Of a stretch of DNA of 64,000 nt, positions 3,525 through 57,900 are shown piece after piece. Source of the stretch: an uncultured Candidatus Peribacteria bacterium. GTDB lineage: Bacteria; Patescibacteriota; Gracilibacteria; UBA1369. The notes beneath the pieces are model-generated. The model made no database searches. It saw nothing but the letters and a program-made list of their open reading frames with translations, and was not told where the DNA came from. Both the position numbers and the translations under genes were made by a program. The number at the start of each line of letters is the position of its first letter. Positions within the stretch are counted from its first letter, which is position 1. The stretch spans positions 127,797-191,796 of the forward strand of contig CAZNDB010000003.1 of the NCBI GenBank assembly GCA_964571725.1, written 5' to 3'.

Positions 3525-3598
3525 GCGGTATTGGTTCAATGGTAGAACGCGACCTTCCCAAGGTTGAGACACGGGTTCGATTCCCGTATACCGCTCCA
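3525..3598 (+). tRNA. tRNA-Gly (anticodon CCC), CCA encoded
   Basis: Manual cloverleaf: acceptor GCGGTAT/ATACCGC, D stem GTTC/GAAC, anticodon stem CGACC/GGTTG, loop TTCCCAA, T stem ACGGG/CCCGT, T loop TTCGATT, discriminator T, CCA. 74 nt. Confidence 0.95.
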
Positions 3599-3651
3599 TA
3601 AAATCGGCCACTGATATTTTACCTGCAAAGACATCCTGGTTCTTCTTTTTT

Positions 3652-4485
3652 ATGATATTATTTGTTACAAGCAATACCATTTCTAATAACAGTATGACCA
3701 AAGATTGCAATGTATTTCAGCATTATTGGTTCAATCCAGGTTTGGCAGCTCTAAGAAGCGTTGAAGCACAAATCTTAAATTCAAAAATCACTCAGCTGCA
3801 TTTACAATCCTCAACCTGTGCGCTGGATATTGGAGTCGGTAATGGATATTTTAGTAACCTGTTGGATGTCCATTTCAAACTTGGAATTGATTTGCTGCCG
3901 GAGCAGCTTGAAGAAGCAAAAAAATTCAACCAGCACGATGAGTTACAAAAGTTTGACATTTCACAAAAAATCTCCTCAGGCAATCCAATTAAAGCTGATC
4001 TGATCATCTCCAATTCTGTGCTTGAACACACCTCGGACCCAAACGCCGCTATCCAGAATATTGCGAAATTTTTAATTAAAGGTGGTTACGCACTGATTAC
4101 AATCCCTCTGGAATCTTCCATTAAATGTGTTAATCCAGGTCCCAAACAAGAATACAGCCGGGTAATGAAAATATTTCTGGGCCATAAAAATATGTATAAC
4201 AAACAAAAATGGGAAAGACTGTTTCTCAAACACGGTCTTAACATAGTTGAATCAAAATACTACTTATTCAGTGAGTTTGCCGGATACATGAAGGCCTTTT
4301 CTCCATTTAAAACAATCCTGAACGAACGAGTCAGATCTGAAGTTAAATTACATGATCATTTCATCAGCGAGTTTGCTTCCCACCAAAAAGAATTGTTTGT
4401 CCCAGTAATGAAAAGAGAATTGGATCTGTTTAGAGACAATTCGGCAAATATTGGTGATTGTTTATTTCTGGTTCTGAGAAAATGA
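3652..4485 (+). CDS. class I SAM-dependent methyltransferase
   Basis: 277 aa. ALDIGVGNGYF (motif I, GxGxG), acidic residue in GIDLLPEQL, later ADLIISNSVLEHT and KGGYALIT (motifs II/III), as in small-molecule methyltransferases. Alternative start ATG at 3694 (MTKDC). Confidence 0.7.
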   Translation: MILFVTSNTISNNSMTKDCNVFQHYWFNPGLAALRSVEAQILNSKITQLHLQSSTCALDIGVGNGYFSNLLDVHFKLGIDLLPEQLEEAKKFNQHDELQKFDISQKISSGNPIKADLIISNSVLEHTSDPNAAIQNIAKFLIKGGYALITIPLESSIKCVNPGPKQEYSRVMKIFLGHKNMYNKQKWERLFLKHGLNIVESKYYLFSEFAGYMKAFSPFKTILNERVRSEVKLHDHFISEFASHQKELFVPVMKRELDLFRDNSANIGDCLFLVLRK

Positions 4486-4487
4486 AA

Positions 4488-5027
4488 TTAGTAACTATTC
4501 CATTTGATCGATTCAATTTCGGCTTTTCTTTCCAGCAGTGTTGGCCAGACTTTCTCCCGTGACAGTTTTTGTTCGGATATCTTCAAAAAACAATTAAACT
4601 TCTCCAATAATATCTGAAATTGCTTTTCATTTTCGGCCAAATGATAATAATAAGAATTGTCTATCAAATCGGCTGCCCGAACAATCAAACAAGCCGCTCC
4701 CATTCGATCAGCTTCCATAAACGACTTGAAGTATCTTGCTTTGTGATCTTCAATAGTTTTATCCAGAGTACAGGCCAGCACCATATCAAAAACGTTTCTG
4801 CCAAATCTTTCAACCAAAGTATTCTCTTCCACTGAAGAATCCTCCATTAGATCGTGAAATAACGCCGCTATGACAATGTCTTTGCCATAACCAAGATCAT
4901 AAAGCCAATAGGCAATTCTTAAGCTATGCATGAGAACCGGTTTTGTACTTCGATTAAACGTCTGTAATGCCTGTACCAAAAAAATTATAGCTTCTTCTAT
5001 TTTTTGATCATCACTTTTGTTTAGCAT
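4488..5027 (-). CDS. HD-domain phosphohydrolase, RelA/SpoT-hydrolase-like (small alarmone hydrolase architecture)
   Basis: HSLRIAYWLYDLGYGKDIVIAALFHDLMEDS matches the SpoT/Mesh1 HD...ED hydrolase motif. The track start at 5057 is TTG and overlaps the upstream gene by 47 nt; the ATG at 5027 is preferred. Confidence 0.65.
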   Translation of the reverse strand: MLNKSDDQKIEEAIIFLVQALQTFNRSTKPVLMHSLRIAYWLYDLGYGKDIVIAALFHDLMEDSSVEENTLVERFGRNVFDMVLACTLDKTIEDHKARYFKSFMEADRMGAACLIVRAADLIDNSYYYHLAENEKQFQILLEKFNCFLKISEQKLSREKVWPTLLERKAEIESIKWNSY

Positions 5028-6012
5028 TCTTATTGCAAAAACTGTAAATGTCTTCAATTTTGGCTGTTAAATCCACCGCCTGTTGATATCCGCAAACTTC
5101 ACTCCCTATACTACCGTAGATTATTGATTTTAGCACTGCCGTATAATTATGCCTGTGCCCTAAACCATATATGTCGTTTTTATCGGGTTCCGTTTCATCA
5201 TTTCCGTCCAGAAAGATAGAAGAATACTCAATTTTATTCAAGCCGGGCCCCCCAATCTTAATAGTCCCTTTTTCTCCCACAATCAGGAGAGTGTTTTCCA
5301 GATTCCGATTACTGACACAAGTCGAGAATTCCAGATTTATTGGTATCGAATGATTTTGAAGCATCACTGACATAAAATTTTCTGTTTCAATGCAATATCC
5401 CAAATCCAAAAGTTGTTTATTGGCAAACACAACTTTGGACTCATTAATATTCAGATCCGGCAACCAATGGCATAAATCAAGCAAATGTATACCCTGGTTG
5501 TAAAGTATGCCTCCTTCCTTATTTTTTATCCCTTTCCAGCTGTGTTGGTAATACTCAAATGGCCGGTACCATCTGGTTGCCCCTGCGCAATATAATATCT
5601 TCCCTAACTTTCCCTCCACCAGGGCCTTCCTTACCGTTTGTACAGCCATATTAAATCTGTTCTGCGTAATCATATACAGTCGACCCGCCCAATTGGCCTT
5701 GATCCCTCTTAATTCTGATTTGTGAAGACAAAGTGGTTTTTCAGATATACAAATTTTCCCCGCCTTTAGTACCTTTTTAATAATGGGAGCATGCAGGTGA
5801 TGAGGAGTACAAACTGAAATAATATCCGTATTTTGAATTGATTCCTCCAGTGACGCAAACTGATTTAGATGATATTTTTCTGCAAACCGGCGCCCTGTTT
5901 CCAGATCTATATCATAGACACCGCATATACCCGCCTCAGAATTTTCGGACAACGCAAGGTAGTGTTTATGGGCAATATTACCCGTTCCTATCAACGCGAC
6001 TTTTAACGGCAT
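5011..6012 (-). CDS. Gfo/Idh/MocA family NAD(P)-dependent oxidoreductase
   Basis: 333 aa. N-terminal Rossmann motif KVALIGTGNIAHKHY, EKPL motif (ISEKPLCL), and a C-terminal alpha/beta domain typical of inositol or sugar dehydrogenases. Confidence 0.85.
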   Translation of the reverse strand: MPLKVALIGTGNIAHKHYLALSENSEAGICGVYDIDLETGRRFAEKYHLNQFASLEESIQNTDIISVCTPHHLHAPIIKKVLKAGKICISEKPLCLHKSELRGIKANWAGRLYMITQNRFNMAVQTVRKALVEGKLGKILYCAGATRWYRPFEYYQHSWKGIKNKEGGILYNQGIHLLDLCHWLPDLNINESKVVFANKQLLDLGYCIETENFMSVMLQNHSIPINLEFSTCVSNRNLENTLLIVGEKGTIKIGGPGLNKIEYSSIFLDGNDETEPDKNDIYGLGHRHNYTAVLKSIIYGSIGSEVCGYQQAVDLTAKIEDIYSFCNKNAKQK

Positions 6013-6809
6013 AATGTTCTTAAATAAATGAATGAATCCAGTGTGTCCTGAACGTTTCCCGTATGGGTTTCCAGAGATAAAAATATTGGATGTTTTGGAT
6101 TTGCCTTTAACAGTTGGGCAAACACTTCTTGATAGGGAATATCTCCCTGTCCGAGAACCACATATCTTTTTCCGGTCACGTCGTAATCTTTTATATGAAA
6201 ATAATGACTTGATTCAATAACCTTCCATTCATCCCGGCCAATCACGCTGTTCCCAATTGAAAACTCGTTACCTAAATCAACCAGAGGGGAAATGTTCCCG
6301 GAATCAAATGCAGATATTCCCCCGAGTTGTTTGATAAATTTAATATTACAGATTGGTTCGTTTTCCATAAGAATTGAGATACCGGCTTTATTCGCTTTCT
6401 CAAGCAACGGCGCCAATCTTTGAACTAATGTTTGGAAACGAAAAGTTTCTGAATCCAAAAAAGAAAACACCCTGACCCTTTCGCATTTGAAGAGTTGGGC
6501 AATGTATAGGCTTCGGTCAATATAATATTCTTCCGTTTTCACTTTATTAAAGCCGAACTGATGACTAATAACTTTCTCTTCCAGATCCCATTTGTACAAA
6601 GGAGAAGCAATACAGCTCACCTGGAGCCCGGATTCGCGAAAACGGGACGCCACATGTTCCAACGTTTGATCGGACAAATTAAAAACGCTTGTGTTGTTAA
6701 AAGATCTTAACTCAATCCATACAACATTATGCTTCCTACAAAAGGAAATACATTCTTCCAGATCGGAGCTGATTTCGTCATTTATTATACTCAAACAAAC
6801 GTTCATCAT
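6003..6809 (-). CDS. sugar phosphate isomerase/epimerase family protein (xylose-isomerase-like TIM barrel)
   Basis: 268 aa. Pattern of WIELRS..., ILMENEP (conserved Glu), HIKD and LETH is typical of the AP-endonuclease-2 / IolE / dehydroshikimate dehydratase-like TIM barrel. Overlaps both neighbours (4 and 10 nt). Confidence 0.65.
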   Translation of the reverse strand: MMNVCLSIINDEISSDLEECISFCRKHNVVWIELRSFNNTSVFNLSDQTLEHVASRFRESGLQVSCIASPLYKWDLEEKVISHQFGFNKVKTEEYYIDRSLYIAQLFKCERVRVFSFLDSETFRFQTLVQRLAPLLEKANKAGISILMENEPICNIKFIKQLGGISAFDSGNISPLVDLGNEFSIGNSVIGRDEWKVIESSHYFHIKDYDVTGKRYVVLGQGDIPYQEVFAQLLKANPKHPIFLSLETHTGNVQDTLDSFIYLRTLCR

Positions 6810-7672
6810 AATTTAGCGGATAATTTCTTATAAATAGCCTCAACTCCACCCTCATCTAAATGACAGTCATTCCATATCTCAAAAGCCTTTACGCCCTGAT
6901 AGATCATCCAGTACAGTCCTCCGCAGACATGTGCACCATGCTCTTTCGCCAACTTTAAAAACTTGGTTTCAAGAGGGTTAAATATTGCATCAAAAAAATA
7001 TCTGGGTTTGTCGAAAAAAAACGCAGACTGAAGTAGATCAAAAGTTTCCACTTCCAGCAAAGAGACGGAACTTTGAGGGGACATCCCTACCGGCGTTACG
7101 TTAATTATATAGTTGATATCCTCCTGGAGTAATATTTTAGCAATGGCATACTGATCAAAAGGAATTGCTTCTTTAAGACAATGAAACCTTCCCATAAGGT
7201 TTACCGCCTTATTGTGATCCCTGTTCGTAATCCAGACATTAGACGTAAATTTTCCAAGTTCGTTGAGAACTGCCCTTGCGGCCCCTCCCGCCCCCAAAAT
7301 CAGCACCTTATCCGCCGTTTCCAGAGGTTTTAATCGTTTGGAAATTGTCGTAATCGCTCCATAACAATCCGTGTTGAATCCCTGAAAACCTTTTTCCGAA
7401 ATTTTTACGGTATTTACGGCACCACACGCTCTCACATTTTCGTCAAAGCTATCCAATAAACTCACCGCGTCCATCTTATGGGGTAACGTGATATTAAACC
7501 CTTTGAAACCAAGCTCACGCATTGACTCAAAGACAGATTTTAGCCTGCCGGCTTCCGGAACATTGATTTTAAGATGACTATAATCCAGCCCCTGCGTCTC
7601 AGCAAAATATTGAAACAAGTAGTTTGACACACTGTGCTCCACTGGGCTACCAATAAGCGCGCTGTAGTTCAT
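6806..7672 (-). CDS. aroE: shikimate/quinate 5-dehydrogenase-like protein
   Basis: 288 aa. IGSPVEHSVSNYLFQYF, GFNITLPHK, GAVNTV, GFNTDCYG and ILGAGGAARAV are all AroE-family signatures. Confidence 0.8.
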   Translation of the reverse strand: MNYSALIGSPVEHSVSNYLFQYFAETQGLDYSHLKINVPEAGRLKSVFESMRELGFKGFNITLPHKMDAVSLLDSFDENVRACGAVNTVKISEKGFQGFNTDCYGAITTISKRLKPLETADKVLILGAGGAARAVLNELGKFTSNVWITNRDHNKAVNLMGRFHCLKEAIPFDQYAIAKILLQEDINYIINVTPVGMSPQSSVSLLEVETFDLLQSAFFFDKPRYFFDAIFNPLETKFLKLAKEHGAHVCGGLYWMIYQGVKAFEIWNDCHLDEGGVEAIYKKLSAKL

Positions 7673-7676
7673 TTTA

Positions 7677-8759
7677 TCAAGTTAATGATTTATTTAAGAG
7701 AATGGAAACGTTTACAATCCTGTCTTCAACTTCGCGCTGAGGTGTTTCAAGTATACTTTCCCAGAAACTGACCACTCTCACGATATAGAGATCCGATAAA
7801 ACCGCCAGATTCTCTTTGCTGATTGGAATGTTTTTTATGACACGGGAAAGAACGCTGGCCCATTGCTGGTCTGTCACCATATCATCATCTAATGTTATTC
7901 CTTCAAATAGCGAGTTCTTGAGACGTTGCCGTAAGGACAAAAGGGCCTGCTTTTTTAAATTCAATGCCTCGGCATAATGATCAAATCTGGAAATGTCGTC
8001 TAAAAAGTAACTAGAACAAGCCTTAAGAGCCCTGTTCAGACTCCTAAAAGGACGTTTTTCAAGCTGATAAAGCAGAGAGTTGGCTATCTGCGGAAACATT
8101 ATGGCCAGATTGGGGAAACTTGCTTTATGAATTTTTTTACTTAATTTTATTTGACCAATCTTAAAAGCTCCCTGCATCGCAGAATAAGTAATAAATACGT
8201 CTATCCCATACAGCAAAGTATCCGGGTGGAAATCAATATTCAATAATGCCTGCACCAAAGCCCTGCTCATCCCAAAATCACCCGCAATAGGTTGCCGGAT
8301 GCAATATCCCGTTAAGGCATATAGTATCGGGAAAGTAAAATGATTGGTTGCACTTCCCTCAAATTTATTTCGGGAGTAAACGGGCGTAATCAAATCGACA
8401 TGGTTGCGAATAATTTGTTGTAAATAAACATCCATCCACATCGGTTCAATTGATCTCAGATCAGTGTCAAAAAGCAGCAAATAATCGTACCCATCCCTGA
8501 TCATGACTTTAAATATTTCCAAGAGGTTTGCTCCCTTGCCTCTCGGTCTGGATTTATTAACAATGCATTCCTTCGAAAAACTTATTCTGAGATTGGAAAA
8601 TACCTCTACTGTTGAGTCCGTACTGTCGCTATCCACAAGTAATATTGATGCGGAATCGTCTTTGGGCAGATATTCCCTCAAACCCTTGTCTATCGCCATA
8701 ACAACCGCTTCAATAGTTCCCTCTTCATTATACGCTGGTAGTCCTACGAGAATTCTCAT
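7677..8759 (-). CDS. family 2 glycosyltransferase (GT-A fold)
   Basis: 360 aa. N-terminal ILVGLPAYNEEGTIEAVV, LLVDSDSTDST and LLLFDTDL (DxD) match the GT2 / glucosyl-3-phosphoglycerate-synthase-like architecture. The acceptor cannot be assigned. Confidence 0.7.
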   Translation of the reverse strand: MRILVGLPAYNEEGTIEAVVMAIDKGLREYLPKDDSASILLVDSDSTDSTVEVFSNLRISFSKECIVNKSRPRGKGANLLEIFKVMIRDGYDYLLLFDTDLRSIEPMWMDVYLQQIIRNHVDLITPVYSRNKFEGSATNHFTFPILYALTGYCIRQPIAGDFGMSRALVQALLNIDFHPDTLLYGIDVFITYSAMQGAFKIGQIKLSKKIHKASFPNLAIMFPQIANSLLYQLEKRPFRSLNRALKACSSYFLDDISRFDHYAEALNLKKQALLSLRQRLKNSLFEGITLDDDMVTDQQWASVLSRVIKNIPISKENLAVLSDLYIVRVVSFWESILETPQREVEDRIVNVSILLNKSLT

Positions 8760-8795
8760 ATTCAGAATGGGTTTATTGCTATGTATTCGTGTTAT

Positions 8796-9746
8796 TTATA
8801 GTTTTGAAACGCTGGATTGAACAAATTTGACAATATCGTCAATCCTCCCTGACACATACAACAGACCTTCCGCCAACAATCTTGACATAAAAAGTTGCCT
8901 GATCTCGTATAATTCAGGACAATCAAAACTTGGCATATAATACATAAATTCTCCATTACTGCCCATACCCGGATTAGCAGTGGCACGAATATGCCGGGAA
9001 AAGTTTTCATTTAGAACCAGCTTTGTCACAAAATCATGACTATCATCTTTTACAAATAGTTTTTCTTGTCCCTGATCCACATGAACAACAAGTGCAAGTT
9101 TAAGTTGTATATTCCCCCTTGTGGATTCAATACCTAAACTTTCAGGGGCAACATATTGTTTATGTCTCCAAGTATCCAGATCTGATCCGGAAAACAACGG
9201 TAACAGATCAGGTAAATTTCTGCTTACCGATTCCTTCCTCAAGTAAACTATTTTTGTGCCGTCAAAAACTGCGGGAAACCCGTTTTCATCCATTCCGATT
9301 ATCGATAAATCATTCCCAATCAATCGTGCTTCTGCATGACGACACAATTCTATTGCCAGTGAGCTTTTCCCTGCACCTTCTTTTCCAAAAATTACTATCC
9401 CCTGCCGGCCTATTTCTACCGTTGCGGCATGGCTAGTCAAACGCCCCTTTCTTTGCCGTGCGGCCTCAGTCAAAGGATAGCACGCATATGAAAGAACCTC
9501 ACCGCTGACGCTGTCATATGGAGCCTGAAACGATACGCTGTTTTCACCGGTAATTACGTATTCAGGCTTTCCAGAGGTAAAGTCCAGCCTTGAACCCGGT
9601 AAATCCGGCTCAACCAGTCTATATCCTGGCATTGCCCGACTAAACCTTTCATGTCGATCAAACAAGGTTCTGATAATACCGGATTCGCTTGAAATCGTCA
9701 CCGCCTCACCCCCGATTTCCACACCGATTTTATCAATCTCTACCAT
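8796..9746 (-). CDS. HprK-related P-loop kinase-like protein
   Basis: 316 aa. SHAATVEIGRQGIVIFGKEGAGKSSLAIEL resembles the HPr kinase C-terminal P-loop segment. The rest is unassignable. Its start overlaps the upstream gene by 7 nt. Confidence 0.5.
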   Translation of the reverse strand: MVEIDKIGVEIGGEAVTISSESGIIRTLFDRHERFSRAMPGYRLVEPDLPGSRLDFTSGKPEYVITGENSVSFQAPYDSVSGEVLSYACYPLTEAARQRKGRLTSHAATVEIGRQGIVIFGKEGAGKSSLAIELCRHAEARLIGNDLSIIGMDENGFPAVFDGTKIVYLRKESVSRNLPDLLPLFSGSDLDTWRHKQYVAPESLGIESTRGNIQLKLALVVHVDQGQEKLFVKDDSHDFVTKLVLNENFSRHIRATANPGMGSNGEFMYYMPSFDCPELYEIRQLFMSRLLAEGLLYVSGRIDDIVKFVQSSVSKL

Positions 9747-10948
9747 GATTTTGGCATTAAATAACCTCCCAATAATTTCTGCAAATGATCATTTTTTAAA
9801 AAAACTTCACGAATAATTTTCTCAACGCCACTGCGTTCTACCGGCTCTATCCCGACACGTGCCATATATACAATGACCGAAGATGGCTCTAATAATGGTT
9901 CTCCATTATTAGTCTTAATAATTACTGTATTGGCAGAACCGAAAGCCTCATAAATGGCTCTGGAAATTTCTGCAGCGTAATATGAATGTACTCTACCGGT
10001 ATGATACACGGGATTCTTTCCGAAAGGGGCTTCCACGCTGCTGGATCGCATGATCGAAATCAATCCGTTTACCCGATTACCTCTCCCAACATACCCTTCC
10101 TCTCCAAATTCAATACAACTGCCAGTCGCAGTCAGGTAGGGGGCAGGTCGTAACGAATTTTGGTCTGCAGTATTAATTTGAAGATTTATGTCACAACCGG
10201 TACCAACCAGACTATTGGACAACGCCAGCAACTCTCTGTGCAGTTCTGCTTTATATTCAAAATACTGTTCAATTGTATGAACCTTGTGACTGATCATTGG
10301 AACGCACATCGTTACATCAAAACGCGATAAGTGCCGGACCGTCATTACTTTTATGTCCTGACCAATAAAATCAAATTTGGGAGTATAAGGATCGGTATAA
10401 AAGTAATTTTCCAGTAGCTGGGTCAAATTTTCGGCAACTGATGTTGGATAATGAGCAACAACACAAGCCGTATCGTTAGCCCATTGCTTTTTACTATCCG
10501 GTACATCGTCCAGAGTTTGAGGTCTATACCAACTGGGATTCATCGAATGATCGGACGTTTCGTGTGCAAAAATCAAGTCTTCCTCAACGTTAAGACCCGG
10601 CAACACTTTCCGTAAGTAAGATCTTGCAGCTGATTCCTGAATTTCGCGATAGGGAATTTCGGCATTCCCAAATGCAGAACTCATTCTCCCGCCAAAGTTC
10701 ACCCTAACGTTCTTAATCTTCTCACCGTATCCAAAACCTCGTTTCCAAAGACCGCCCCCTATTCCTAATTTATCTAAATTATGGTGAAGTACTGCGCCAT
10801 ACTTTTCCAGAGTATATTTCGAATACTCGATAGAAATAATCTCGGCCAAACCATCCGCAAGAGTATCAGGATGGCCCAATCCTTTTCTTTCGACAATTTC
10901 TATCGGATCATTTTGAATATCATCCTTATACAAACAAGTGATCTTCAT
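9740..10948 (-). CDS. archaeal-type S-adenosylmethionine synthetase (methionine adenosyltransferase) homolog
   Basis: 402 aa. IEIVERKGLGHPDTLADG, LHHNLDK, ANDT, GQDIKVM, INTAD, YLTATGSCIEFGEEGYVGRGNRVNGLI and FGKNPVYHTG line up with the archaeal MAT family (e.g. Methanocaldococcus) and not with bacterial MetK. Confidence 0.85.
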   Translation of the reverse strand: MKITCLYKDDIQNDPIEIVERKGLGHPDTLADGLAEIISIEYSKYTLEKYGAVLHHNLDKLGIGGGLWKRGFGYGEKIKNVRVNFGGRMSSAFGNAEIPYREIQESAARSYLRKVLPGLNVEEDLIFAHETSDHSMNPSWYRPQTLDDVPDSKKQWANDTACVVAHYPTSVAENLTQLLENYFYTDPYTPKFDFIGQDIKVMTVRHLSRFDVTMCVPMISHKVHTIEQYFEYKAELHRELLALSNSLVGTGCDINLQINTADQNSLRPAPYLTATGSCIEFGEEGYVGRGNRVNGLISIMRSSSVEAPFGKNPVYHTGRVHSYYAAEISRAIYEAFGSANTVIIKTNNGEPLLEPSSVIVYMARVGIEPVERSGVEKIIREVFLKNDHLQKLLGGYLMPKSW

Positions 10949-11673
10949 TTGTTGGGTATTAAGATATCACTCAATTTACTGCGTATATCTCTCGTATAAT
11001 CAACTCCTCTCACAATAACCACGGGTTTACCCTCAGCAGACTCGCCCATCAAAATAGAGGCAGCCGCAGCAACCCTGTCAACTATATTCATTAGCGGTTT
11101 TCCGATCTTCCCATAAAGATCCGGACCGGTCTTTTGCTCCAATCCTTTAATTCCGGAAAAACCAATCGCAGCACCGATAGAACCACCTCTATTGGCATTC
11201 CCCAGACTATCAGAAATGATTACGGAGACTTCTCTAACTTGAGATTCTATCCGTTTCCGGATTTTTTCCGCGCTTGCATCCGCATCCAATGGTAATAAAA
11301 CGACTCTTTGCCTATCTTCCTGATCAATATTAGACATGTCTATCCCTGCCGAAGTACAAACCATTCCGTTGTTGTGCTCTACTACAATTACCTTACCTTT
11401 TATATCAATAATTGATTTAGATTCCCTCAAAACCAGTTCACAGAACTCGGGAGATCTGCCGGTCTTTCTGGCCAATTCCAGAGCATATTCTGAAGGTATC
11501 ACTGTATCAAGCCAAATAAGTCTGTCCTCTGCCTTGGAAACAATCTTTTGCGCAATAACAATGATGTCCCTGTCTTGAATCGAATCAGCATAATCCATCA
11601 CCATCTCCCCCAAATCATCTCCAGGCTTTACCAGTGGAAAATTTGGTACCTCGATGACTTCTATTTTGGTCAT
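10945..11673 (-). CDS. CofE-like protein (coenzyme F420-0:L-glutamate ligase family fold)
   Basis: 242 aa. GDDLGEMV, IIVIAQKIVSKAEDR, VCTSAGIDMSN, VIISDSLGN..RGG and GESAEGKPVVIVRG match the CofE / FbiB N-terminal domain pattern. First gene of the overlapping operon. Confidence 0.7.
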   Translation of the reverse strand: MTKIEVIEVPNFPLVKPGDDLGEMVMDYADSIQDRDIIVIAQKIVSKAEDRLIWLDTVIPSEYALELARKTGRSPEFCELVLRESKSIIDIKGKVIVVEHNNGMVCTSAGIDMSNIDQEDRQRVVLLPLDADASAEKIRKRIESQVREVSVIISDSLGNANRGGSIGAAIGFSGIKGLEQKTGPDLYGKIGKPLMNIVDRVAAAASILMGESAEGKPVVIVRGVDYTRDIRSKLSDILIPNK

Positions 11674-11804
11674 ACTTGTTTAGACTCAATATTTTAAAAT
11701 TCAGGAGATTGCACATTACCAATCTTTCCACGCGTTTGTCAATTGCCCGTGCGATATTTCAATCAAACAATAACTGAAACTCAGTTCAAATAAAAAAATT
11801 CAAT

Positions 11805-11833
11805 TTGCTAATCTGTCAGCCTTGGGCTAGTAT
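11805..11833 (+). promoter_or_regulatory. putative sigma70-type promoter for typA (TTGCTA-17-TAGTAT)
   Basis: Hexamers read by eye with a 17-nt spacer, about 100 nt upstream of the typA ATG. Confidence 0.3.
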
Positions 11834-11930
11834 TCCGTGGCTAATTGGCAATAATGTTTTAAAATATACATTTCTTTCGCTTACTGCCCCGGCAAAACCT
11901 CATCTCCAAGTTAATTCTCAAGTTACCGCT

Positions 11931-13739
11931 ATGAAAACCCTCTCAATCGCTATCATCGCCCACGTTGATCACGGAAAAACCACCTTGACCGACCATCTGC
12001 TCCGCCAGGGCGGAGCCTTCAACACCCACGAAAAAGTGGAAGAACTGGTCATGGATTCCAACGACCAGGAACGCGAAAGAGGCATCACTATTTTTGCCAA
12101 AAACTGCGCCGCTTTTTACAAGGACGTGAAGATTAATATAGTTGACACTCCCGGCCACGCCGATTTCAGTTCCGAAGTGGAACGCATCCTGAAAATGGTG
12201 GATTGCGTGATTCTGCTGGTAGACGCCAAGGAAGGCCCCATGCCACAGACCAAATTCGTGCTGGCCAAATCCCTGAAGCTCGGCCACAAACCGATCGTGG
12301 TCATCAACAAAATCGATCGCAAGGACCAGCGCGCCGAAACGGTCGTGGACCAGGTCTTCGACCTCTTCGTGAAACTCGGCGCCACTGACGAACAGTTGGA
12401 TTTCCCAATTATTTATGCCATCGGCCGCGAGGGAATCGCCAAATATAATATGGAGGACGAAAGCAAAGACCTCACCCCGCTTTTTGACACTATCCTCAAA
12501 CACGTCCCCCTTTACGATGAATCTTTGGCGCAAAAACCCCTGCAAATGCAGGTTACCAACCTCGGTTATGACGATTACATCGGACGCATCGCCATCGGAC
12601 GCATACTGAAAGGAACTCTCAAGGTTGGTCAAAACGTCACCATCTGCAAAATCGACGGCAGCAAAAGGACTTCCCGCGTCACCAAGATCTTTATTTACGA
12701 AGGCGTACGCCAAACTGAAGTAATAAAAGAAGCTGATGCCGGAGAAATCGTGGCTATTGCCGGATTCCCGGACATCACCATCGGCGAAACCGTCACCGAT
12801 CCTGCGCTCCCGGTTGCCCTGCCCCTCCTGCAAATCGACGAGCCAACCCTGCAGATGAATTTTCTGGTCAACAACTCCCCTTTTGCCGGCAAGGAAGGGA
12901 AATTCGTCACCACACGCCACATCAAGGACCGTCTGGACAAGGAATTACAAACCAATGTCGGTCTCCGCGTTGAACCCCTGGAAGGAACCGACGGCTACAA
13001 GGTATCCGGTCGCGGCGAACTGCATCTGTCCGTACTAATCGAGGCCATGCGCCGCGAAGGTTTTGAGTTGCAGGTTTCCCAACCCGAAGTAATTCTTAAA
13101 GACATCGACGGCCAGAAATGCGAACCGATTGAACAACTGATTATCAGCGTCCCGGAAGAATTTTCCGGAACCGTGATCGAAAAACTGGGCCGCCGCAAAG
13201 GCGAGATGAAAGATCTGGTTACCGAAAACGGCATCACGCGCATCGAATATGAAATTCCTACCCGCGGTCTGCTGGGTTTCCGTTCCGAATTCGTCATGGA
13301 TACCCGCGGCGAAGGTCTGATGGATCACAGTTTTCTCAAATATGACGGTTACAAAGGCCTCATTCCGCACAGGGGCAACGGCGTTCTGATTTCCGGTGAC
13401 AAAGGCGTTACGGTTGCTTACGCGCTATTTTATCTACAGGAAAGAGGAACTCTGTTCGTACCGCCGGTTACTCCGGTTTATGAAGGCATGATTATCGGTG
13501 AAAACGCCCGCGGAGAAGATCTGACGGTCAATCCCTGCAAAGAGAAAAGGATGTCCAATATGCGCACCACCGCCTCCGATCAGGCCATCAAGATCACCAC
13601 GCCCCGTGAAATCACACTGGAAAGCGCGCTGGAATACATCCAGTCCGATGAGCTGGTGGAAGTCACCCCGAAGTCCATCCGTCTGCGCAAAAAGTTCCTG
13701 ACCGAACTGGACCGCAAACGCGTCTCCAGGGATAAATAA
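11931..13739 (+). CDS. typA: translational GTPase TypA/BipA
   Basis: [14 protein letters not shown] (G1), DTPGHADF (G3), NKIDR (G4), plus EF-G-like domains. The track ORF begins at a TTG at 11805, but the conserved N-terminus starts at the ATG at 11931 (MKTLSIAII). Confidence 0.95.
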
Positions 13740-14865: not shown

Positions 14866-15132
14866 ATGTCTAATAAGCACGTCAATCATCAGCACGGTTT
14901 ACACACCATGAACGCCACCCGCCCCAAAAGCAAGGTGACCAAAAAAGTCAATAAAGCCAAGGCCAAAGTCAGAAAGGCTCCTCTCCTGGCAGCCCTGATG
15001 GAAGCCCGCTACGGCAAGAAAGTGGCCGTTACCAAAACAGCCAAACCCGCCAAAAAGACCACCGCCGCCAAGAAAGCCACCGCCAAAGCCAAAGTTGCCA
15101 CCAAAAAAGCCGCGGCCAAAAAGAAGGCCTAA
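14866..15132 (+). CDS. Lys/Ala-rich histone H1-like basic protein
   Basis: 88 aa. The C-terminal half is KKTTAAKKATAKAKVATKKAAAKKKA, a low-complexity sequence like bacterial H1/Hc1/AlgP-type nucleoid proteins. It has its own promoter and terminator. Confidence 0.6.
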   Translation: MSNKHVNHQHGLHTMNATRPKSKVTKKVNKAKAKVRKAPLLAALMEARYGKKVAVTKTAKPAKKTTAAKKATAKAKVATKKAAAKKKA

Positions 15133-15165
15133 ATAAAACAGCTTTCCAATTCTCGTTTGACTATT

Positions 15166-15201
15166 AAAACACCGTTCAATCCACGATTGACCGGTGTTTT
15201 T
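15166..15201 (+). terminator. rho-independent terminator candidate
   Basis: AAAACACCG (15166-15174) pairs with CGGTGTTTT (15192-15200) and is followed by T. The 17-nt loop is rather large. Confidence 0.45.
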
Positions 15202-15231
15202 CCATTATGCCTCCAGAAAGTCCCCCCTTCC

Positions 15232-15259
15232 TTGCTGAATAATTAATTTGTGTTATAAT
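15232..15259 (+). promoter_or_regulatory. extended -10 promoter (TTGCTG-16-TGtTATAAT)
   Basis: TGTGTTATAAT at 15249-15259; ATG at 15292. Confidence 0.5.
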
Positions 15260-15291
15260 AAACAGATTATCTATTTCCAATATAAAAATAT

Positions 15292-16878
15292 ATGTCTTCA
15301 TCCAATCTCCAGACTATCGAACAAAAAGACGACGATTCCCAAAAACCCGACTCCCTGCCTCCGGAAAGCGGCGACAGAAAGCGTGAAAAAAACGAATCCC
15401 TGGAAGCCGCGGATCAATCCTCAGCTAAAATCCATGATATCAGTTCCGCTATTCATAAACGGATTATTCCGGAAGGAGTGGATCTGAGCCAATGGGGAGG
15501 AGCAAATCTGGACCGGGAATTCCTCGATGAACTTAAATCCTATGGTTTTTCCAAAAATGAAATCGAAAAATTACATATCATCCGGGGAAAAATACGCGGA
15601 TCTGCTTTCTATCAGAAAGAAGCCGACCACCGGGAACTTACACAGGCCTTGAAAACCGCCCTCGGAGACGATTTGAAATATTTATACTCCATGCTGGCCA
15701 AATTCCGGACCAATGCCGGCAAAGATTTACCCGGTCTCTCAACGCAGGAATTGGATATGGAGTTCATGGATAAACTGGGGGTCCGTTTCATCGATCTGGA
15801 AAGACAAAGGGAACGGGTGGACGAATTAATCATCAATAAATTTGGCTATCGGGACAATATCCGCAAACAACAGCTTTTCAAGCTGATCGTCAAACACAAT
15901 CCCGATATTACCCTGCTCAATCGTCTGGCAGTTTTTGTTCGCCGCATCTATTCCACCTATGACCGGAAACCCGAAATTTTCGGTGATGACCACTTTGATA
16001 ATCTGGCCTTTGGAATTATTGAAGACTGTCTGGCCAATAAAAAAATTATCACCCTGCCAATACAAAACCTGATGACCGATTTTATTGCGCGAACGCGTCT
16101 CACGGATCCCCGCCCACTTATCTCCCTTTACCCACTCTATGAAAATGACGCCGGAAAATTCAAGCAGGTACTGGACTCCCTGGAACAACTGATCCAAAGA
16201 TGGGGAACAAACACCCGTGAACTCATGATTATGATTCAAAACCTGCATCCCCTCTATCACAACAATCTGGCCAGTTTCCAGAAATGGGTGGACCGGACTG
16301 CCGGCATCCTGCAGCATCAGCCGACACACTATCGTTCTTCGGATGTCATTGAAAGCGAAGAAAGAGCCAAAGCAGAAGTTCTCAGAACCATCAAACCTTT
16401 CAATCTGGGGGGAAACCACGATTTCAGTAAAATTATGGAAAACCTGGAACCTACAGACGCCGAGACTCTGGGAAACAAACTTATGGATGAAGCCACCCAT
16501 TTCATGGATCTCTATTATTATGGAAAAGAAAGCGAAGGACTAAAAGAATATTACGATTCTTTCCTGCGCGGACTCTATGAGGGGCAATCCGTCTATATCA
16601 TTCCGGCTGCCCCGGGCCAAACCCATCCCCGTCTCGACCTGCAAAAACTGGAAGGGCTGATAAAAGTATTCCATGAAGCTTCCAAAGTAACCTATGACGG
16701 GTACTACCAGAGAGACGGGTCTTATATCAGAGATATCGAAAAGTACATCACTAAAAATACGAGTGGAAATCTGACCCTGGAACAAATTCAACACTTTTAC
16801 CGGGATCTGAGGGCAGAAACAATTAAGGAACACGACCAAAAACTGGGCCGTCCAGCTTCAAACGACACCGCCAAATAG
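15292..16878 (+). CDS. hypothetical protein (528 aa, soluble, no recognisable domain)
   Basis: Long uninterrupted ORF with its own promoter. Acidic or disordered N-terminus followed by sequence that looks helical. No motif recognised. Confidence 0.6.
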   Translation: MSSSNLQTIEQKDDDSQKPDSLPPESGDRKREKNESLEAADQSSAKIHDISSAIHKRIIPEGVDLSQWGGANLDREFLDELKSYGFSKNEIEKLHIIRGKIRGSAFYQKEADHRELTQALKTALGDDLKYLYSMLAKFRTNAGKDLPGLSTQELDMEFMDKLGVRFIDLERQRERVDELIINKFGYRDNIRKQQLFKLIVKHNPDITLLNRLAVFVRRIYSTYDRKPEIFGDDHFDNLAFGIIEDCLANKKIITLPIQNLMTDFIARTRLTDPRPLISLYPLYENDAGKFKQVLDSLEQLIQRWGTNTRELMIMIQNLHPLYHNNLASFQKWVDRTAGILQHQPTHYRSSDVIESEERAKAEVLRTIKPFNLGGNHDFSKIMENLEPTDAETLGNKLMDEATHFMDLYYYGKESEGLKEYYDSFLRGLYEGQSVYIIPAAPGQTHPRLDLQKLEGLIKVFHEASKVTYDGYYQRDGSYIRDIEKYITKNTSGNLTLEQIQHFYRDLRAETIKEHDQKLGRPASNDTAK

Positions 16879-16900
16879 TAATCCAAAAACCGGCCAGGAC

Positions 16901-19777: not shown

Positions 19778-19812
19778 TAAGTGAACAAAAAATAAAACTA
19801 AAACAAAAAAAC

Positions 19813-20379
19813 ATGTCCAAGTCTTCGAAAATTGCTTTAATCAGGGAAATTTTAGACAGTGCTGAGGCCTCGCTGCGCTCGGCCAAACAAATGCTGGCTG
19901 AAATGGCCGGGGAATCAGGTCAGAATCAGCTTGCCAAAATGGCCGAGAAAGTCGGCAGCCACAAACAGGTTGGCGAACAGCATATTATCGAGGGATCGTT
20001 TGACGGTCAAAATATGATCGGACCCGATGCCCGCGTTTATTCCGTTCCGGCCAATTATGCCTCCAAATCCAAGCTGGTCCCCGGAGACGTTTTAAAACTG
20101 ACTATTACCGAGGACGGAACCTTTCTGTACAAACAGATCGGCCCTATCGAAAGAAAAAAGCTGGTTGGAACGCTTACCTATGATGATGGCGTTTACCGCG
20201 TCATTGCCGGAGGGAAGTCCTACAAAGTATTGCTGGCTTCCGTAACCTATTTCAAAGCAGAGATCGGCGACCGGATCACTATAGTGGTTCCGGAAAGCAG
20301 CGACAGCGACTGGGCTGCTATTGAGAACGTTCTCCCCCGCTTCGAGGAAGGCATCAGTCCTGACGATTTCAAAATTTAA
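19813..20379 (+). CDS. hypothetical protein (188 aa), first gene of the pilT operon
   Basis: ORF with an N-terminal helix and a C-terminal half that looks beta-rich. No motif recognised. 42 nt upstream of pilT. Confidence 0.55.
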   Translation: MSKSSKIALIREILDSAEASLRSAKQMLAEMAGESGQNQLAKMAEKVGSHKQVGEQHIIEGSFDGQNMIGPDARVYSVPANYASKSKLVPGDVLKLTITEDGTFLYKQIGPIERKKLVGTLTYDDGVYRVIAGGKSYKVLLASVTYFKAEIGDRITIVVPESSDSDWAAIENVLPRFEEGISPDDFKI

Positions 20380-20421
20380 AAAATCCCCCGCCGGAAAACC
20401 GGCCAAAATAAAAATAAAATT

Positions 20422-21480
20422 ATGGCTCAATTAGACAAAATCTTCAAAACCGCTGTTCAGTACAAAGCTTCCGATGTCTATATCACCACAGGTACCAAGC
20501 CCATTCTGCGCATCAACGGTAATCTGATCTCCATCGAAGAACATCCGGTGCTGTCCAAAAAAATGGCTGAGGACTACCTTTCCGAAATTCTAAGCGACAA
20601 ACAAAAGGAAGAATTTTCCCGCACTCTCGATCTCGACTTCTCTCTGGAAGTACCCGGAGTTTCACGCTTCAGAGTAAATATGTTCGTCCAAAGAAAGGGA
20701 ATCGGAGCCTGTTTCCGCGTCATTCCGGAAAACGTCCACACCCTGGAAGAATTGGGACTCCCGGATAAATTAAAGGAAATTGCCGTCACCGACCTGGGTC
20801 TGGTCATCGTAACCGGTGCCACCGGTTCAGGTAAATCCACCACCCTGGCCGCCATGTTAAATGAGGTCAACTCCAAAGACGCGCGCCATATCATCACCAT
20901 TGAAGACCCCATTGAATACGTCCATGAAAACGTTAAATCCGTCATCGATCAACGTGAAGTCGGCACCCACACCCTGAGCTTTCAGAAAGCCCTGCGTTCC
21001 GCCCTGCGTGAAGATCCGGATGTAATTCTGGTTGGTGAAATGCGTGATCTGGAAACCATTGCACTGGCTCTTACCGCCGCTGAAACCGGTCACTTGGTGT
21101 TCGCCACTCTGCATACCAACGGAGCCGCCGCTTCCATCGACCGTATCATCGACGCCTTCCCGACCAATCAGCAAAATCAGATCAGAATGCAGCTGGCCGG
21201 TTCCCTGAAAGCCGTAGTCTGGCAGACACTGCTCAAAACCAAAGACGGCAACGGCCGCGTGGCCGGTCTGGAAATCATGATCAACAACAATGCCGTAGCC
21301 AACATGATCCGTAAAAACAAGACCCATCAGCTGAACTCCGCCATCGAAACCGGTTTCAAAGAAGGTATGCAAACCATGAAGAAGTCCATTACCGAGTTAT
21401 TGGAAGCCGGAATTATCAGCGAAGAAGTCGCCCTGGAAAATATTCCCGAAGACATTATCGATAACAATGCCAACGCTTAA
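20422..21480 (+). CDS. pilT: type IV pilus retraction ATPase PilT
   Basis: 352 aa. Walker A GATGSGKSTT, IITIEDPIEY (Asp box), ILVGEMRD (Walker B), GHLVFATLHT (His box), and AVANMIRKNKTHQL in the position of the PilT AIRNLIRE motif. Confidence 0.92.
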   Translation: MAQLDKIFKTAVQYKASDVYITTGTKPILRINGNLISIEEHPVLSKKMAEDYLSEILSDKQKEEFSRTLDLDFSLEVPGVSRFRVNMFVQRKGIGACFRVIPENVHTLEELGLPDKLKEIAVTDLGLVIVTGATGSGKSTTLAAMLNEVNSKDARHIITIEDPIEYVHENVKSVIDQREVGTHTLSFQKALRSALREDPDVILVGEMRDLETIALALTAAETGHLVFATLHTNGAAASIDRIIDAFPTNQQNQIRMQLAGSLKAVVWQTLLKTKDGNGRVAGLEIMINNNAVANMIRKNKTHQLNSAIETGFKEGMQTMKKSITELLEAGIISEEVALENIPEDIIDNNANA

Positions 21481-21937
21481 CATCACAAAATCCGCCGCTC
21501 TGATTTTGAAAACCCTGCTGGTCGGACTGTTGTTGTCGTTGAATATTGGACAAACCGCCTGGGCGCAGCTGGACCGAAGTCAATATAGCCAGATGAATGT
21601 CGGCCAGGTACTTTCCCTCAAAGAAAACACCGAGGGACAAACCGGGGCTGGCGTTACGCAAGGCAGCCAGGATCAGAGTTATCTGAAAAGCAGCAACCCC
21701 ACCGCCTCTTTCATCCTGCAGGCCATTAACATGGTCGCCCTGATGTCAGCCTCTTTAAGCTTTCTGGCCATAGTCGTCGCCGGTTTTATGATGATGACCT
21801 CTACTGGCAACGAAACACAAAGAAACCGGGGCATCGAAATATTAACAAAGGCCATAGTCGGGCTGGTAATTACTTTGAGCGCCTATTTCATCGTAGCTTT
21901 CGTCCAGAATTTACTTTTTGAAACCGCCGGAAAATAA
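21467..21937 (+). CDS. TrbC/VirB2-like pilin family protein, paralog 1 (putative)
   Basis: 156 aa. Signal peptide (…TAWA|Q), variable ectodomain, then a TM-loop-TM hairpin LSFLAIVVAGFMMMTSTGNETQRNRGIEILTKAIVGLVITLSAYFIV. The start overlaps the pilT stop by 14 nt. Confidence 0.65.
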   Translation: MPTLNITKSAALILKTLLVGLLLSLNIGQTAWAQLDRSQYSQMNVGQVLSLKENTEGQTGAGVTQGSQDQSYLKSSNPTASFILQAINMVALMSASLSFLAIVVAGFMMMTSTGNETQRNRGIEILTKAIVGLVITLSAYFIVAFVQNLLFETAGK

Positions 21938-22618
21938 ATGAAAAAATTTGTCACAAAAATCTTGTTACTCACTCTTGCCAGTATCATTACGATTTCAATC
22001 TCGCAAGTTTCATTTGCCTTAACGCAATTTCAGGTCTGCACTTTTGTAAACAACCAAAACAAATCCGTTGACGAAAAAGTACCGGTAGACGATAGAGAAT
22101 TTTCAGACAAAATGGTTGTGATTACCGAAGAAAGACTGGGTGCCCCCGACAACAAAAACACCTTCAACTGCTACCGGAAAATTGAATGTACCATTAAACC
22201 TTCAGACCCCGCTAAAGCAGGCGAGAATCTGATCCGCAAATGCTCTACAACCTTCACAACTTCTTCCCCTTCCGGATGTTCAAACAGCAAAGAAATTGCT
22301 GAAGTATTGGCAAAAACACCGGCCGAAAACGACACCTACACCATCTGCGAACCCATTATGGTCTATGTCTCCGGAGCCGGCACGGAATTACTGTACTACT
22401 ACATGGGACAAATCTATAAGTACATAGCCACACTGGGCGGCCTGATTGCCGTACTTGCTCTGATCATCGCGGGAATCATGCGTTCAACCGCCGGCGACAA
22501 CACCACCCAGATCACCGAAGCCAACAAAATCATTACCAAATCCATAACCGGACTGGTGGTGCTGTTCTTATCGGCCATCATTCTTTACACCATCAATCCG
22601 AACTTCTTTGTAATTTAG
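21938..22618 (+). CDS. TrbC/VirB2-like pilin family protein, paralog 2 (Cys-rich ectodomain)
   Basis: 226 aa. Signal peptide (…VSFA|L), ectodomain of about 120 aa with 6 Cys, and hairpin LIAVLALIIAGIMRSTAGDNTTQITEANKIITKSITGLVVLFLSAII. Starts at the base after the paralog 1 stop. Confidence 0.6.
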   Translation: MKKFVTKILLLTLASIITISISQVSFALTQFQVCTFVNNQNKSVDEKVPVDDREFSDKMVVITEERLGAPDNKNTFNCYRKIECTIKPSDPAKAGENLIRKCSTTFTTSSPSGCSNSKEIAEVLAKTPAENDTYTICEPIMVYVSGAGTELLYYYMGQIYKYIATLGGLIAVLALIIAGIMRSTAGDNTTQITEANKIITKSITGLVVLFLSAIILYTINPNFFVI

Positions 22619-22621
22619 CCA

Positions 22622-23044: not shown

Positions 23045-23045
23045 A

Positions 23046-23636: not shown

Positions 23637-23642
23637 ACAAAA

Positions 23643-57835: not shown

Positions 57836-57900
57836 TGTTGTTTATCTTTATTATTATTTTGTTTCCGTTTGGGCAGCCAGATTTTAACATGAAAATATAA

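Follow-up and report, generated by a model that had tools for sequence, protein, structure and literature searches.

What is a low-GC block of 8 kb doing between a tRNA gene and typA in a patescibacterial genome, where did it come from, and what might its genes make? The question is raised by a 64-kb stretch of contig CAZNDB010000003.1 of an uncultured Candidatus Peribacteria bacterium (hereafter the window, numbered from its first letter). Positions 3599-11804 of the window, immediately after a tRNA-Gly(CCC) gene, had been described in an initial annotation as a low-GC island carrying a self-contained, horizontally acquired accessory operon. Composition and the absence of these genes from sister genomes both support that description. 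The account that we favour as a whole, and hold to be probable, is that of an acquired cassette encoding a dedicated pathway. Its parts can be graded separately: horizontal acquisition with replacement of the resident interval is highly probable, while a dedicated pathway, as opposed to housekeeping functions in coenzyme F420, S-adenosylmethionine (SAM) or shikimate metabolism, is the reading to which we incline.

The compositional evidence is clear. GC content is 0.400 in 3599-11804 against 0.475 in the remainder of the window; for single 1-kb windows the values are 0.37-0.42 inside the island and at least 0.439 everywhere outside it. All nine open reading frames (ORFs) of the island have a GC content at third codon positions (GC3) of 0.35-0.43, while the other ORFs of at least 100 aa lie mostly at about 0.45-0.66, with three exceptions at 0.40-0.43 (a 174-aa ORF, a 1372-aa ORF and a 106-aa ORF beside rnpA). 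Tetranucleotide usage deviates by z = 8.2-9.5 in 4-kb windows within the island and stays within ±2.4 in those that do not touch it. The segment from 3599 to about 11790 is the sole compositional outlier of the window, and the concern that many similar low-GC segments might exist finds nothing comparable there, with only the 0.34-kb rnpA gene dipping. That dip belongs to a stretch at 57817-58468 (GC 0.37-0.40), which takes in rnpA itself (58130-58468, for the RNase P protein, a small basic core protein) and an overlapping 106-aa minus-strand ORF (57817-58137) to which no family was assigned, and it is no second island.

A second line of evidence comes from the same locus in related genomes. 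TypA of the window has relatives of 67-74% identity in Candidatus Peregrinibacteria and Gracilibacteria, with three closest relatives at 93, 91 and 85%, and because of this company the host is placed by sequence as a Peregrinibacteria/Peribacteria-type Patescibacterium. The sister loci from the three closest relatives are L023 (93% TypA), L024 and L025 (both 91%) and L026. The sisters have in common a left flank of Dus, Zincin_1, YgjP-like and tRNA-Gly(CCC) genes and a right flank of typA, MscS, MgtC, FtsQ-like, T2SSE and pilin genes. Homology to all three by blastn ends at window positions 3599-3604 and restarts at 11927-11929, and nucleotide alignments diverge from the first base after the CCA end of the tRNA. 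On the other side, a typA leader of 80-100 nt, common to the window and L023 from about 11780-11800, fixes the right junction. The proposed bounds of the island, 3599 and 11804, proved accurate by these alignments (left edge 3599, right edge about 11780-11800), and the start of typA was corrected from TTG 11805 to ATG 11931. The leader itself (11797-11930; e.g. TTTGCT.ATC...CCTTGGGCTA.TAT.CCGTGGC...AATGTTTTAAA.TATAC) is conserved with L023 and not with the 91% and 85% sisters, and could be a promoter or an RNA leader.

Between these two anchors, four related genomes carry four gene sets, and the tRNA-Gly(CCC)-typA interval is a hypervariable hotspot. The cargo amounts to 2.5 kb of hypothetical genes in L023, 6.4 kb with Zip, Fur, an SLH protein and tRNA-Ser in L024, and 7.9 kb including ProRS in L026. 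A 206-aa gene beside typA is common to the three sisters, and a second interval gene to two of them; the window lacks the former (0 tblastx high-scoring pairs), and its interval content matches that of none of the sisters. Because the sisters share the gene by typA and the window shares nothing with them, the ancestral content was replaced, not merely interrupted. Insertion next to a tRNA gene, as first proposed, stands as regards tRNA-adjacent horizontal acquisition but not as a simple insertion, since the whole interval was replaced. The three sisters carry other genes at the tRNA-Gly locus and none of these. In fact, close relatives apparently lack the cassette anywhere in the genome: besides the protein of the window itself, the kinase search gave only a 77% match on a 1.2-kb contig and matches of at most 51%, and a MAT-like search went from the window's own protein to a next match at 57% with none between, in a database that also holds a sister genome's proteins, including TypA on a 1.34-Mb contig. 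A 71-nt tRNA-Ser(TGA) is also present in the 91% sister, within its variable cargo between the SLH-protein gene and hypothetical genes (L024 7570-7640, L025 6881-6951); it may be left over from earlier insertions into the hotspot or may have served them as a second target.

How the block arrived is less plain. An island that is old and domesticated, one of the options originally entertained, is unlikely because its GC3 is still about 0.2 below that of the host. The initial annotation had seen no integrase, transposase or att repeat, and this was confirmed: the nine island ORFs contain no integrase or recombinase domain, and the tRNA 3' end has no second copy at up to 3 mismatches. A search for a degenerate att repeat, advised for the region near 11.7 kb, gave nothing above shuffled controls, the best 12-26-mer matches near 11.6-11.94 kb being no better than in shuffled sequence. 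As neither integrase nor att repeat was found, we can only infer the route; most likely it was recombination anchored in the flanks, or else an illegitimate event that left no trace, with a lower-GC bacterium that had a Peribacteria-type cassette as the donor. About 8 kb from the hotspot, at 19800-24200, lie a T2SSE ATPase gene and several T4SS_pilin-type genes, assigned by homology to sister loci and syntenic in all sisters; they form a type-IV-pilus or competence-like apparatus and a possible route of DNA uptake, and any link with the island is speculative. Like other tRNA-adjacent genomic islands, the block starts exactly at a tRNA 3' end, has a foreign composition, is absent from close relatives and carries a complete accessory operon at a site occupied by different cargo among strains. 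Unlike them, it lacks an integrase, a repeated tRNA 3' end and any mobility gene, and the exchange of a whole interval brings it closer to flank-anchored allelic replacement than to site-specific integration. As a genomic island it is familiar, and it departs from the type in its missing integrase and in whole-interval replacement at a hotspot.

The gene content and architecture are as originally described, namely nine genes of which eight form a minus-strand operon, with a convergent methyltransferase gene (Table 1). Domains were assigned with Pfam and NCBIfam/TIGRFAM models, the tRNA with ARAGORN, and structural relatives through PDB sequence searches. The operon is read in the order CofE-like, MAT-like, kinase, GT2, AroE-like, TIM barrel, Gfo/Idh/MocA and HD; its junctions are overlaps of 4, 7, 4, 10 and 17 nt (the last with the HD start at ATG 5027) and gaps of 36 and 4 nt. 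The stop codon of the methyltransferase gene is 2 nt from that of the HD gene. None of the nine proteins has a transmembrane-like segment, and counts of promoter- or terminator-like motifs in the island were not above shuffled expectation. The cassette is intact, translationally coupled and fully cytoplasmic. An anti-phage defence system was considered and rejected on a PADLOC screen, in which the island proteins gave only a weak generic methyltransferase match (8.6e-06).

Table 1. Features of the island and its flanks in the window, with the occurrence of each protein family among 21 cassette loci (rows without coordinates are families of other loci).
Feature	Position	Strand	Assignment and remarks	Cassette loci
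tRNA-Gly(CCC)	3525..3598	+	ARAGORN; also in L023-L026; conserved left anchor of hotspot	
Class I SAM-dependent methyltransferase, 277 aa	3652..4485	+	Pfam Methyltransf_23/11/12; GC3 0.367; convergent with operon	2/21 (window, L003)
HD_4 (RelA/SpoT-hydrolase-type) phosphohydrolase, 179 aa from ATG 5027	4488..5027	-	Pfam HD_4 6.9e-10	13/21
Gfo/Idh/MocA NAD(P) oxidoreductase	5011..6012	-	Pfam; PDB sequence search 3Q2K 1.1e-30	7/21 (TIM/Gfo)
Xylose-isomerase-like TIM-barrel protein, putatively an isomerase, epimerase or dehydratase of sugars	6003..6809	-	Pfam AP_endonuc_2 5.4e-16	7/21 (TIM/Gfo)
AroE-type shikimate-dehydrogenase-family enzyme	6806..7672	-	TIGR00507 205.5 bits against cut-off 200.2	15/21
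Soluble GT-A (GT2) glycosyltransferase	7677..8759	-	Pfam Glycos_transf_2 and MGS_GT; core	19/21
P-loop kinase, PEPCK/HprK superfamily, 316 aa	8796..9746	-	Pfam Hpr_kinase_C 25.1 bits (gathering 33.3); cassette marker	21/21
MAT-like protein (PF01941), distinct bacterial subfamily	9740..10948	-	Pfam 1.1e-87; core	21/21
CofE-like GTP-dependent gamma-glutamyl ligase, first operon gene	10945..11673	-	Pfam F420_ligase (PF01996) 2.9e-59; PDB 2PHN; core	18/21
Island-specific intergenic DNA upstream of CofE-like gene	11674..11790	.	Presumably operon promoter; no homology to any sister genome	
typA leader and typA (ATG 11931, 602 aa)	11797..13739	+	Conserved right anchor of hotspot	
MBL-fold hydrolase (not in window)				9/21
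ComB-like phosphatase				2/21, both Peribacteria

Is this combination of genes peculiar to the window? It is not; the set belongs to a mobile family of cassettes, conserved but patchy in its distribution, and the kinase provides a marker by which the cassette can be followed across bacteria. The kinase family is small: a word-indexed search of 5.8e9 proteins gave 26 relatives, and of 1.84e9 representatives scanned with a profile, 167 scored at E<=1e-30 and 453 at E<=1e-10. A profile-guided scan with the kinase family alignment found 20 cassette loci in 185,579 bacterial and archaeal species-representative genomes, where a scan with the single kinase sequence gave none, and look-ups of the MAT-like protein added two more (L027 and L029), making at least 22 further loci in total. 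Among Patescibacteria the hosts include Peribacteria (two loci), Falkowbacteria, Saccharibacteria, Buchananbacteria, Berkelbacteria, Nealsonbacteria and others. Beyond them stand four metagenome-assembled genomes (MAGs) of Clostridia/Eubacteriales, one MAG each labelled Gammaproteobacteria and Alphaproteobacteria, and one Acidobacteriota. The core occurs as well in two cultured Streptomycetaceae, Streptomyces sp. NPDC003717 and Streptantibioticus parmotrematis Ptm05.

A census of components over 21 loci, with all-against-all clustering at a 90-aa minimum, separates core from accessory members (Table 1). The core consists of the CofE-like ligase, the MAT-like enzyme, the PEPCK/HprK-fold kinase and the GpgS-like GT-A glycosyltransferase. 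An AroE-type dehydrogenase and a phosphohydrolase are the usual partners, the hydrolases (HD, MBL-fold or ComB-like) being apparently interchangeable. The sugar 3-dehydrogenase, the TIM-barrel enzyme and the methyltransferase are optional; the Gfo and TIM-barrel genes come as a pair, and the methyltransferase has a single homologue, which terminates the L003 cassette (34% identity; tblastn and family clustering). In about two thirds of the loci, the CofE-MAT-kinase order is kept with overlapping stop and start codons, and because of this conserved arrangement the three enzymes are suggested to act closely together. The nearest solved relatives of the Gfo protein are the WlbA/WbpB UDP-sugar 3-dehydrogenases and the DgpA glycoside 3-dehydrogenases, and the TIM-barrel protein has no sequence-level match to any solved structure in the PDB search. 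The HD protein reads with an intact H...HD...ED...D motif; an alternative start at TTG 5057 would lengthen it to 189 aa.

The surroundings of these other loci bear on mobility. Relative to its flanks, the cassette is AT-shifted in L012 (-0.083), L027 (-0.082), L016 (-0.063) and L029 (-0.063), and in L003 too, and it is GC-shifted in L004 and L021. Large serine recombinase genes lie just upstream of it in L012 (4804-6537, with Resolvase, Recombinase and Zn_ribbon_recom domains) and L016 (1953-3089, a homologue by clustering). These adjoining recombinases, together with the GC drop of 0.06-0.08 in the same two loci, suggest that the cassette rides integrative elements in some hosts. Toxin-antitoxin genes stand beside it in L027. 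Several loci have peculiarities of their own. In the Peribacteria locus closest to the window (L001/L003), the MAT-like gene at 8820-10007 was called as two ORFs (60 + 326 aa), a split that might stem from a frameshift, from pseudogenisation or from misassembly; an MBL-fold gene lies between kinase and GT2 there, and a ComB-like 2-phosphosulfolactate-phosphatase gene runs divergently. In Streptantibioticus parmotrematis (L022, 13189-14904), the CofE-like domain follows, in one fused protein, an N-terminal stretch of about 330 aa without a Pfam match, and a PF04199 cyclase gene and a TIM-barrel gene precede the kinase.

Where, then, did the cassette of the window come from? The initial annotation had thought an archaeal donor plausible, and PF01941 and PF01996 are indeed best known from archaea, which also supply the closest solved structures, at about 35-40% identity. 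The relatives found here tell otherwise. All 20 loci from the scan of bacterial and archaeal genomes are bacterial, as are all the cassette loci found by label, and proteins of bacterial cassettes are 42-58% identical to those of the window, closer than any archaeal MAT or CofE. Against L003 and L027, identities are 52-58% for CofE, 56-57% for MAT, 51-52% for AroE, 51% for the kinase and 42-46% for GT2; they are lower, at 31-46%, for the TIM and Gfo proteins. In neighbour-joining trees without support values, the window groups with L003, L004 and L027 for MAT, CofE, GT2 and AroE, and TkMAT and MjMAT fall outside a single clade of the cassette MAT-like proteins, which share derived characters that both archaeal enzymes lack. 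An archaeal source for the island is extremely improbable on these grounds. Because the nearest relatives are Peribacteria-type cassettes and every cassette locus is bacterial, the donor was very probably bacterial rather than archaeal, and most plausibly another lower-GC organism of Peribacteria type. The "archaeal-type" look of the two proteins is the deep ancestry of PF01941 and PF01996, not the source of the island.

The same relatives raise the converse possibility of no transfer at all, in which the cassette would be ancestral in the Peregrinibacteria/Peribacteria lineage and lost from the sisters, its low GC reflecting weak selection on rarely expressed genes. That L003 and L004, the nearest cassette relatives, are also labelled Peribacteria would fit such differential loss, as would the somewhat AT-shifted variable intervals of L023 and L024. 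However, the L003 cassette lies between pheS and efp and not at tRNA-Gly/typA, and the 206-aa gene shared by three sisters and missing from the window would call for three independent replacements. The GC3 shift of about -0.2 affects all nine genes evenly and sets in abruptly at the tRNA end, and the cassette proteins are only 34-56% identical to those of L003, yet TypA of the sisters is 85-93% identical. Differential loss is accordingly very improbable, and acquisition from a bacterial donor remains the reading carried forward here.

Two proteins of the cassette can be compared residue by residue with characterised enzymes. For the MAT-like protein, the residue roles used as reference are those of TkMAT, in which His33 is the catalytic acid, Asp201 a ribose ligand and Tyr271 the adenine-stacking residue, Asp283-Asp284 bind the ribose hydroxyl and the methionine amine, and Asp144-Leu145 is the gating motif (PMC3853416). 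Mapping was done by alignment to 4L4Q and 7P82, with 140 bacterial sequences and two characterised MATs as reference. The catalytic residues are kept (His33 in 138/140, Asp201 in 140/140, Tyr271 in 138/140). The Asp283-Asp284 pair, by comparison, is Glu-Glu in all 140, turning GDDG into GEEG, and the gate is changed in all 140 as well, being replaced by a longer loop, P-x-W-[FY]-x-P-[RK]...D-[LV]-P-[DE], with Pro at the Leu145 position in 105/140. The protein also scores below the cut-off of all five NCBIfam MAT models (best NF003362, 376.7 bits against 481). Compared with archaeal-type MATs (TkMAT, MjMAT and SsMAT), it has the same fold family and conserves the catalytic and carboxylate residues, but differs in its Glu-Glu pair, its new gate loop, its sub-cut-off scores and its setting in an accessory operon instead of a standalone housekeeping gene.

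A similar pattern is seen in the CofE-like protein. It scores above the TIGR01916 cut-off (219.3 bits against 180.65) and conserves D150 and R157. In Af-CofE, Phe92 stacks on the deazaflavin (PMC10861534). With that one characterised CofE as reference, the corresponding position in 19 cassette CofE-like proteins is M, V, N or another residue, never Phe, Tyr or Trp and once His, and the Phe90 position is Gly in 16/19. Because the catalytic cores are kept and the substrate-selecting elements changed, the labels "SAM synthetase" and "F420 ligase" are both doubtful for these proteins as judged from their residues.

Could the annotations nevertheless be taken at face value, as a cluster in which CofE glutamylates the F420 tail, an archaeal-type MAT makes SAM and AroE acts as shikimate dehydrogenase? 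The CofE-like and AroE-like proteins do exceed the TIGR01916 and TIGR00507 cut-offs, the His, Asp and Tyr residues for catalysis, ribose binding and adenine stacking are all present in the MAT-like protein, as are the ligands of the methionine carboxylate, and NCBI names some homologues methionine adenosyltransferase. The AroE-like protein aligned to 1NVT shows SxS, PHK (Lys), NTD (Asp), QG (Gln) and GAGGAARA..NR all present, so that by sequence it satisfies the threshold and the catalytic and substrate motifs of a shikimate dehydrogenase. Against this, no CofC, CofD, CofG or CofH was found in the window or in any cassette locus examined, close sister genomes live without the cassette, the deazaflavin-stacking Phe is absent from 19/19 cassette CofE-like proteins, and the MAT-like family has its Asp pair and gate altered throughout while falling short of every NCBIfam MAT model. 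In different phyla, moreover, these genes are accompanied by a kinase, a glycosyltransferase and hydrolases; Streptomyces is among the hosts, and it possesses F420 and MetK genes of its own. Taken together, the face-value reading is improbable. The resemblance to F420 tail biosynthesis, the gamma-glutamylation of F420-0 by CofE/FbiB, is nonetheless real in part, as the ligase is a clear CofE homologue and glutamate capping of an alpha-substituted carboxylate, as proposed below, would be the same chemistry. The differences are that CofC, CofD, CofG and CofH do not accompany it, that the stacking Phe is lost family-wide and that the cassette hosts are mostly Patescibacteria, a group not known to make F420.

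The kinase has an invariant Walker A motif, GKxGxGK[ST], and many further invariant Arg, His, Asp and Glu residues. An AlphaFold (AF2) model of it (pLDDT 89.9, pTM 0.88) was compared with the PDB by Foldseek, and all 50 of the 50 best matches were phosphoenolpyruvate carboxykinases (PEPCKs; E 1e-9 to 5e-7, TM about 0.45). Tests for HPr kinase failed (PF07475, 25.1 against 33.3 bits; TIGR00679, 23 against 240 bits), and from its predicted fold the protein is classed as a PEPCK/HprK-fold P-loop kinase and not as an HPr kinase/phosphorylase. The GT2 protein matches the model of glucosyl-3-phosphoglycerate synthase (GpgS), NF010496, at 9.7e-18 with 64.3 bits against a cut-off of 262, and GpgS in the PDB at 3e-6. 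By these scores GpgS is its nearest characterised relative, although GT2 is not a member of that family.

Such similarities invite comparison with the glucosylglycerate/mannosylglycerate pathway, in which GpgS and GpgP act in two steps via a phosphorylated intermediate. In common with it, the cassette has a transferase nearest to GpgS and always at least one phosphohydrolase, which in two loci includes a ComB-family phospho-hydroxyacid phosphatase. In contrast, it adds a kinase, a glutamyl ligase, a MAT-like and an AroE-type enzyme, none of which occurs in known glycosylglycerate pathways. Because a small-acid kinase fold, a GpgS-like transferase, a phosphohydrolase and a glutamate ligase recur together, a phosphorylated, glycosylated hydroxy-acid route is suggested. 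The kinase would phosphorylate a small carboxylic hydroxy- or enol-acid, which might be glycerate-like, lactate-like or, if supplied or tailored by the AroE-type enzyme, shikimate/quinate-like. The GT-A enzyme would glycosylate the phospho-acid, as GpgS does with 3-phosphoglycerate, the HD hydrolase would take the phosphate off, and the Gfo and TIM enzymes could then rework the sugar at its C3 position. The CofE-like ligase might cap the free carboxylate with glutamate, much as the lactyl carboxylate of F420-0 is capped. The MAT-like enzyme would consume ATP in forming SAM or a close relative of it, an adenosyl-sulfonium or adenosyl adduct that either serves the pathway, for example through the methyltransferase, or enters the product. 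The product would be a small anionic glutamylated glycoside or nucleoside-type metabolite made in the cytoplasm. The specific order of these reactions is unlikely to be right as drawn, being an ordering by analogy.

Another means by which the same enzymes could be put to use is the modification of a peptide or protein, along the lines of a ribosomally synthesised and post-translationally modified peptide (RiPP), with an HprK-type kinase acting on Ser, GT2 glycosylating and the CofE-like ligase adding Glu to a C-terminal carboxylate. The kinase does match HprK-related and "ScmC" families, which are associated with peptide-modification cassettes, and some of the Clostridia loci have radical SAM/SPASM genes in the neighbourhood of the cassette. 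Yet a search for a precursor peptide in the island came up empty: no conserved small ORF lies in or beside the operon, whose gaps are 4-36 nt and which has nothing plausible upstream of the CofE-like gene, and all-against-all clustering at its 90-aa minimum gave no small-ORF family. The full-length kinase model, in addition, matches PEP carboxykinases and not HPr kinase, and AroE, Gfo, TIM and GpgS-like proteins are small-molecule enzymes. A RiPP-like function is very improbable.

Within the favoured idea of a dedicated small-molecule pathway, a more particular version can be offered tentatively, as a possibility well short of an expectation. In it the cassette makes a new small molecule with neofunctionalised MAT-family and CofE-family enzymes, a SAM-like or F420-tail-like cofactor or antimetabolite that is horizontally traded. 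The MAT-family enzyme, its gate and amine site rebuilt, would adenosylate a substrate other than methionine or make a SAM analogue, the CofE-family enzyme would glutamylate a non-deazaflavin head group, and the kinase or nucleotidyltransferase with the phosphohydrolases would provide transient activation or self-protection, in a cassette exchanged among Patescibacteria, gut Clostridia, Acidobacteriota and Streptomyces. The nucleotidyltransferase comes from L027, a locus on a 1.2-Mb JGI contig with the closest MAT-like protein (57%), where positions 11231-12627 hold a Pol-beta/NTP_transf_2 nucleotidyltransferase (250 aa) and a 190-aa protein of no family in the slot of the kinase; this non-orthologous swap may reflect transient activation or self-protection of a bioactive product. 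Thuringiensin, built of adenosine, glucose, a sugar acid and phosphate, was considered as a relative and dropped, its published cluster sharing no MAT-like or CofE-like gene. Full-text literature searches on this gene combination, on ScmC/SynChlorMet, and on an archaeal-type MAT or CofE in Patescibacteria found none, and as a pathway the cassette matches nothing found in those searches.

Several points weigh against the account of an acquired cassette with a dedicated pathway. On the side of acquisition, no donor with tRNA-Gly/typA flanks was found, even the closest cassette reaches protein identities of only about 50-58%, and the gene trees are neighbour-joining ones that carry no support values. 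On the side of function, the CofE-like protein passes the NCBI equivalog cut-off for true CofE, and the MAT-like enzyme, which keeps the carboxylate-binding His62, Asn64 and Asn161, may simply make SAM. The pocket comparisons rest on one characterised CofE and two characterised MATs, and the order of reactions comes purely from analogy with GpgS/GpgP and F420-0 glutamylation. The replacement at the kinase slot in L027 fits a step that phosphorylates the acceptor poorly, and AroE-type enzymes normally need the context of the shikimate pathway.

Some other features of the window stand apart from the island. A second indel relative to the three sisters, at 15123-16880, contains a 528-aa ORF (15292-16878, plus strand) with no Pfam match and a host-like GC of 0.457, between a small ORF adjacent to MscS and MgtC. 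L023 and L024 have an extra gene of 280-291 aa between typA and MscS, which the window lacks. Three further minus-strand ORFs, of 1372, 447 and 668 aa (25754-29872, 30317-31660 and 55829-57835), have no Pfam match at E<=1e-5.

Patescibacteria have genomes of about 1 Mb and very little biosynthesis, and an intact, recently acquired nine-enzyme pathway of 8 kb is a large investment for such a reduced genome. If the account favoured here is right, these organisms swap whole metabolic modules at defined hotspots without recognisable integrases. The cassette also presents an annotation trap, as pipelines label its genes F420 ligase, SAM synthetase and shikimate dehydrogenase in organisms that probably lack these pathways. 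At the level of protein families, the cassette delimits a MAT subfamily, recognisable by its invariant GEEG motif and its new gate loop, along with a small family of PEPCK-fold kinases. Finally, the presence of the core in cultured Streptomycetaceae means that the product would be approachable without culturing a Patescibacterium.

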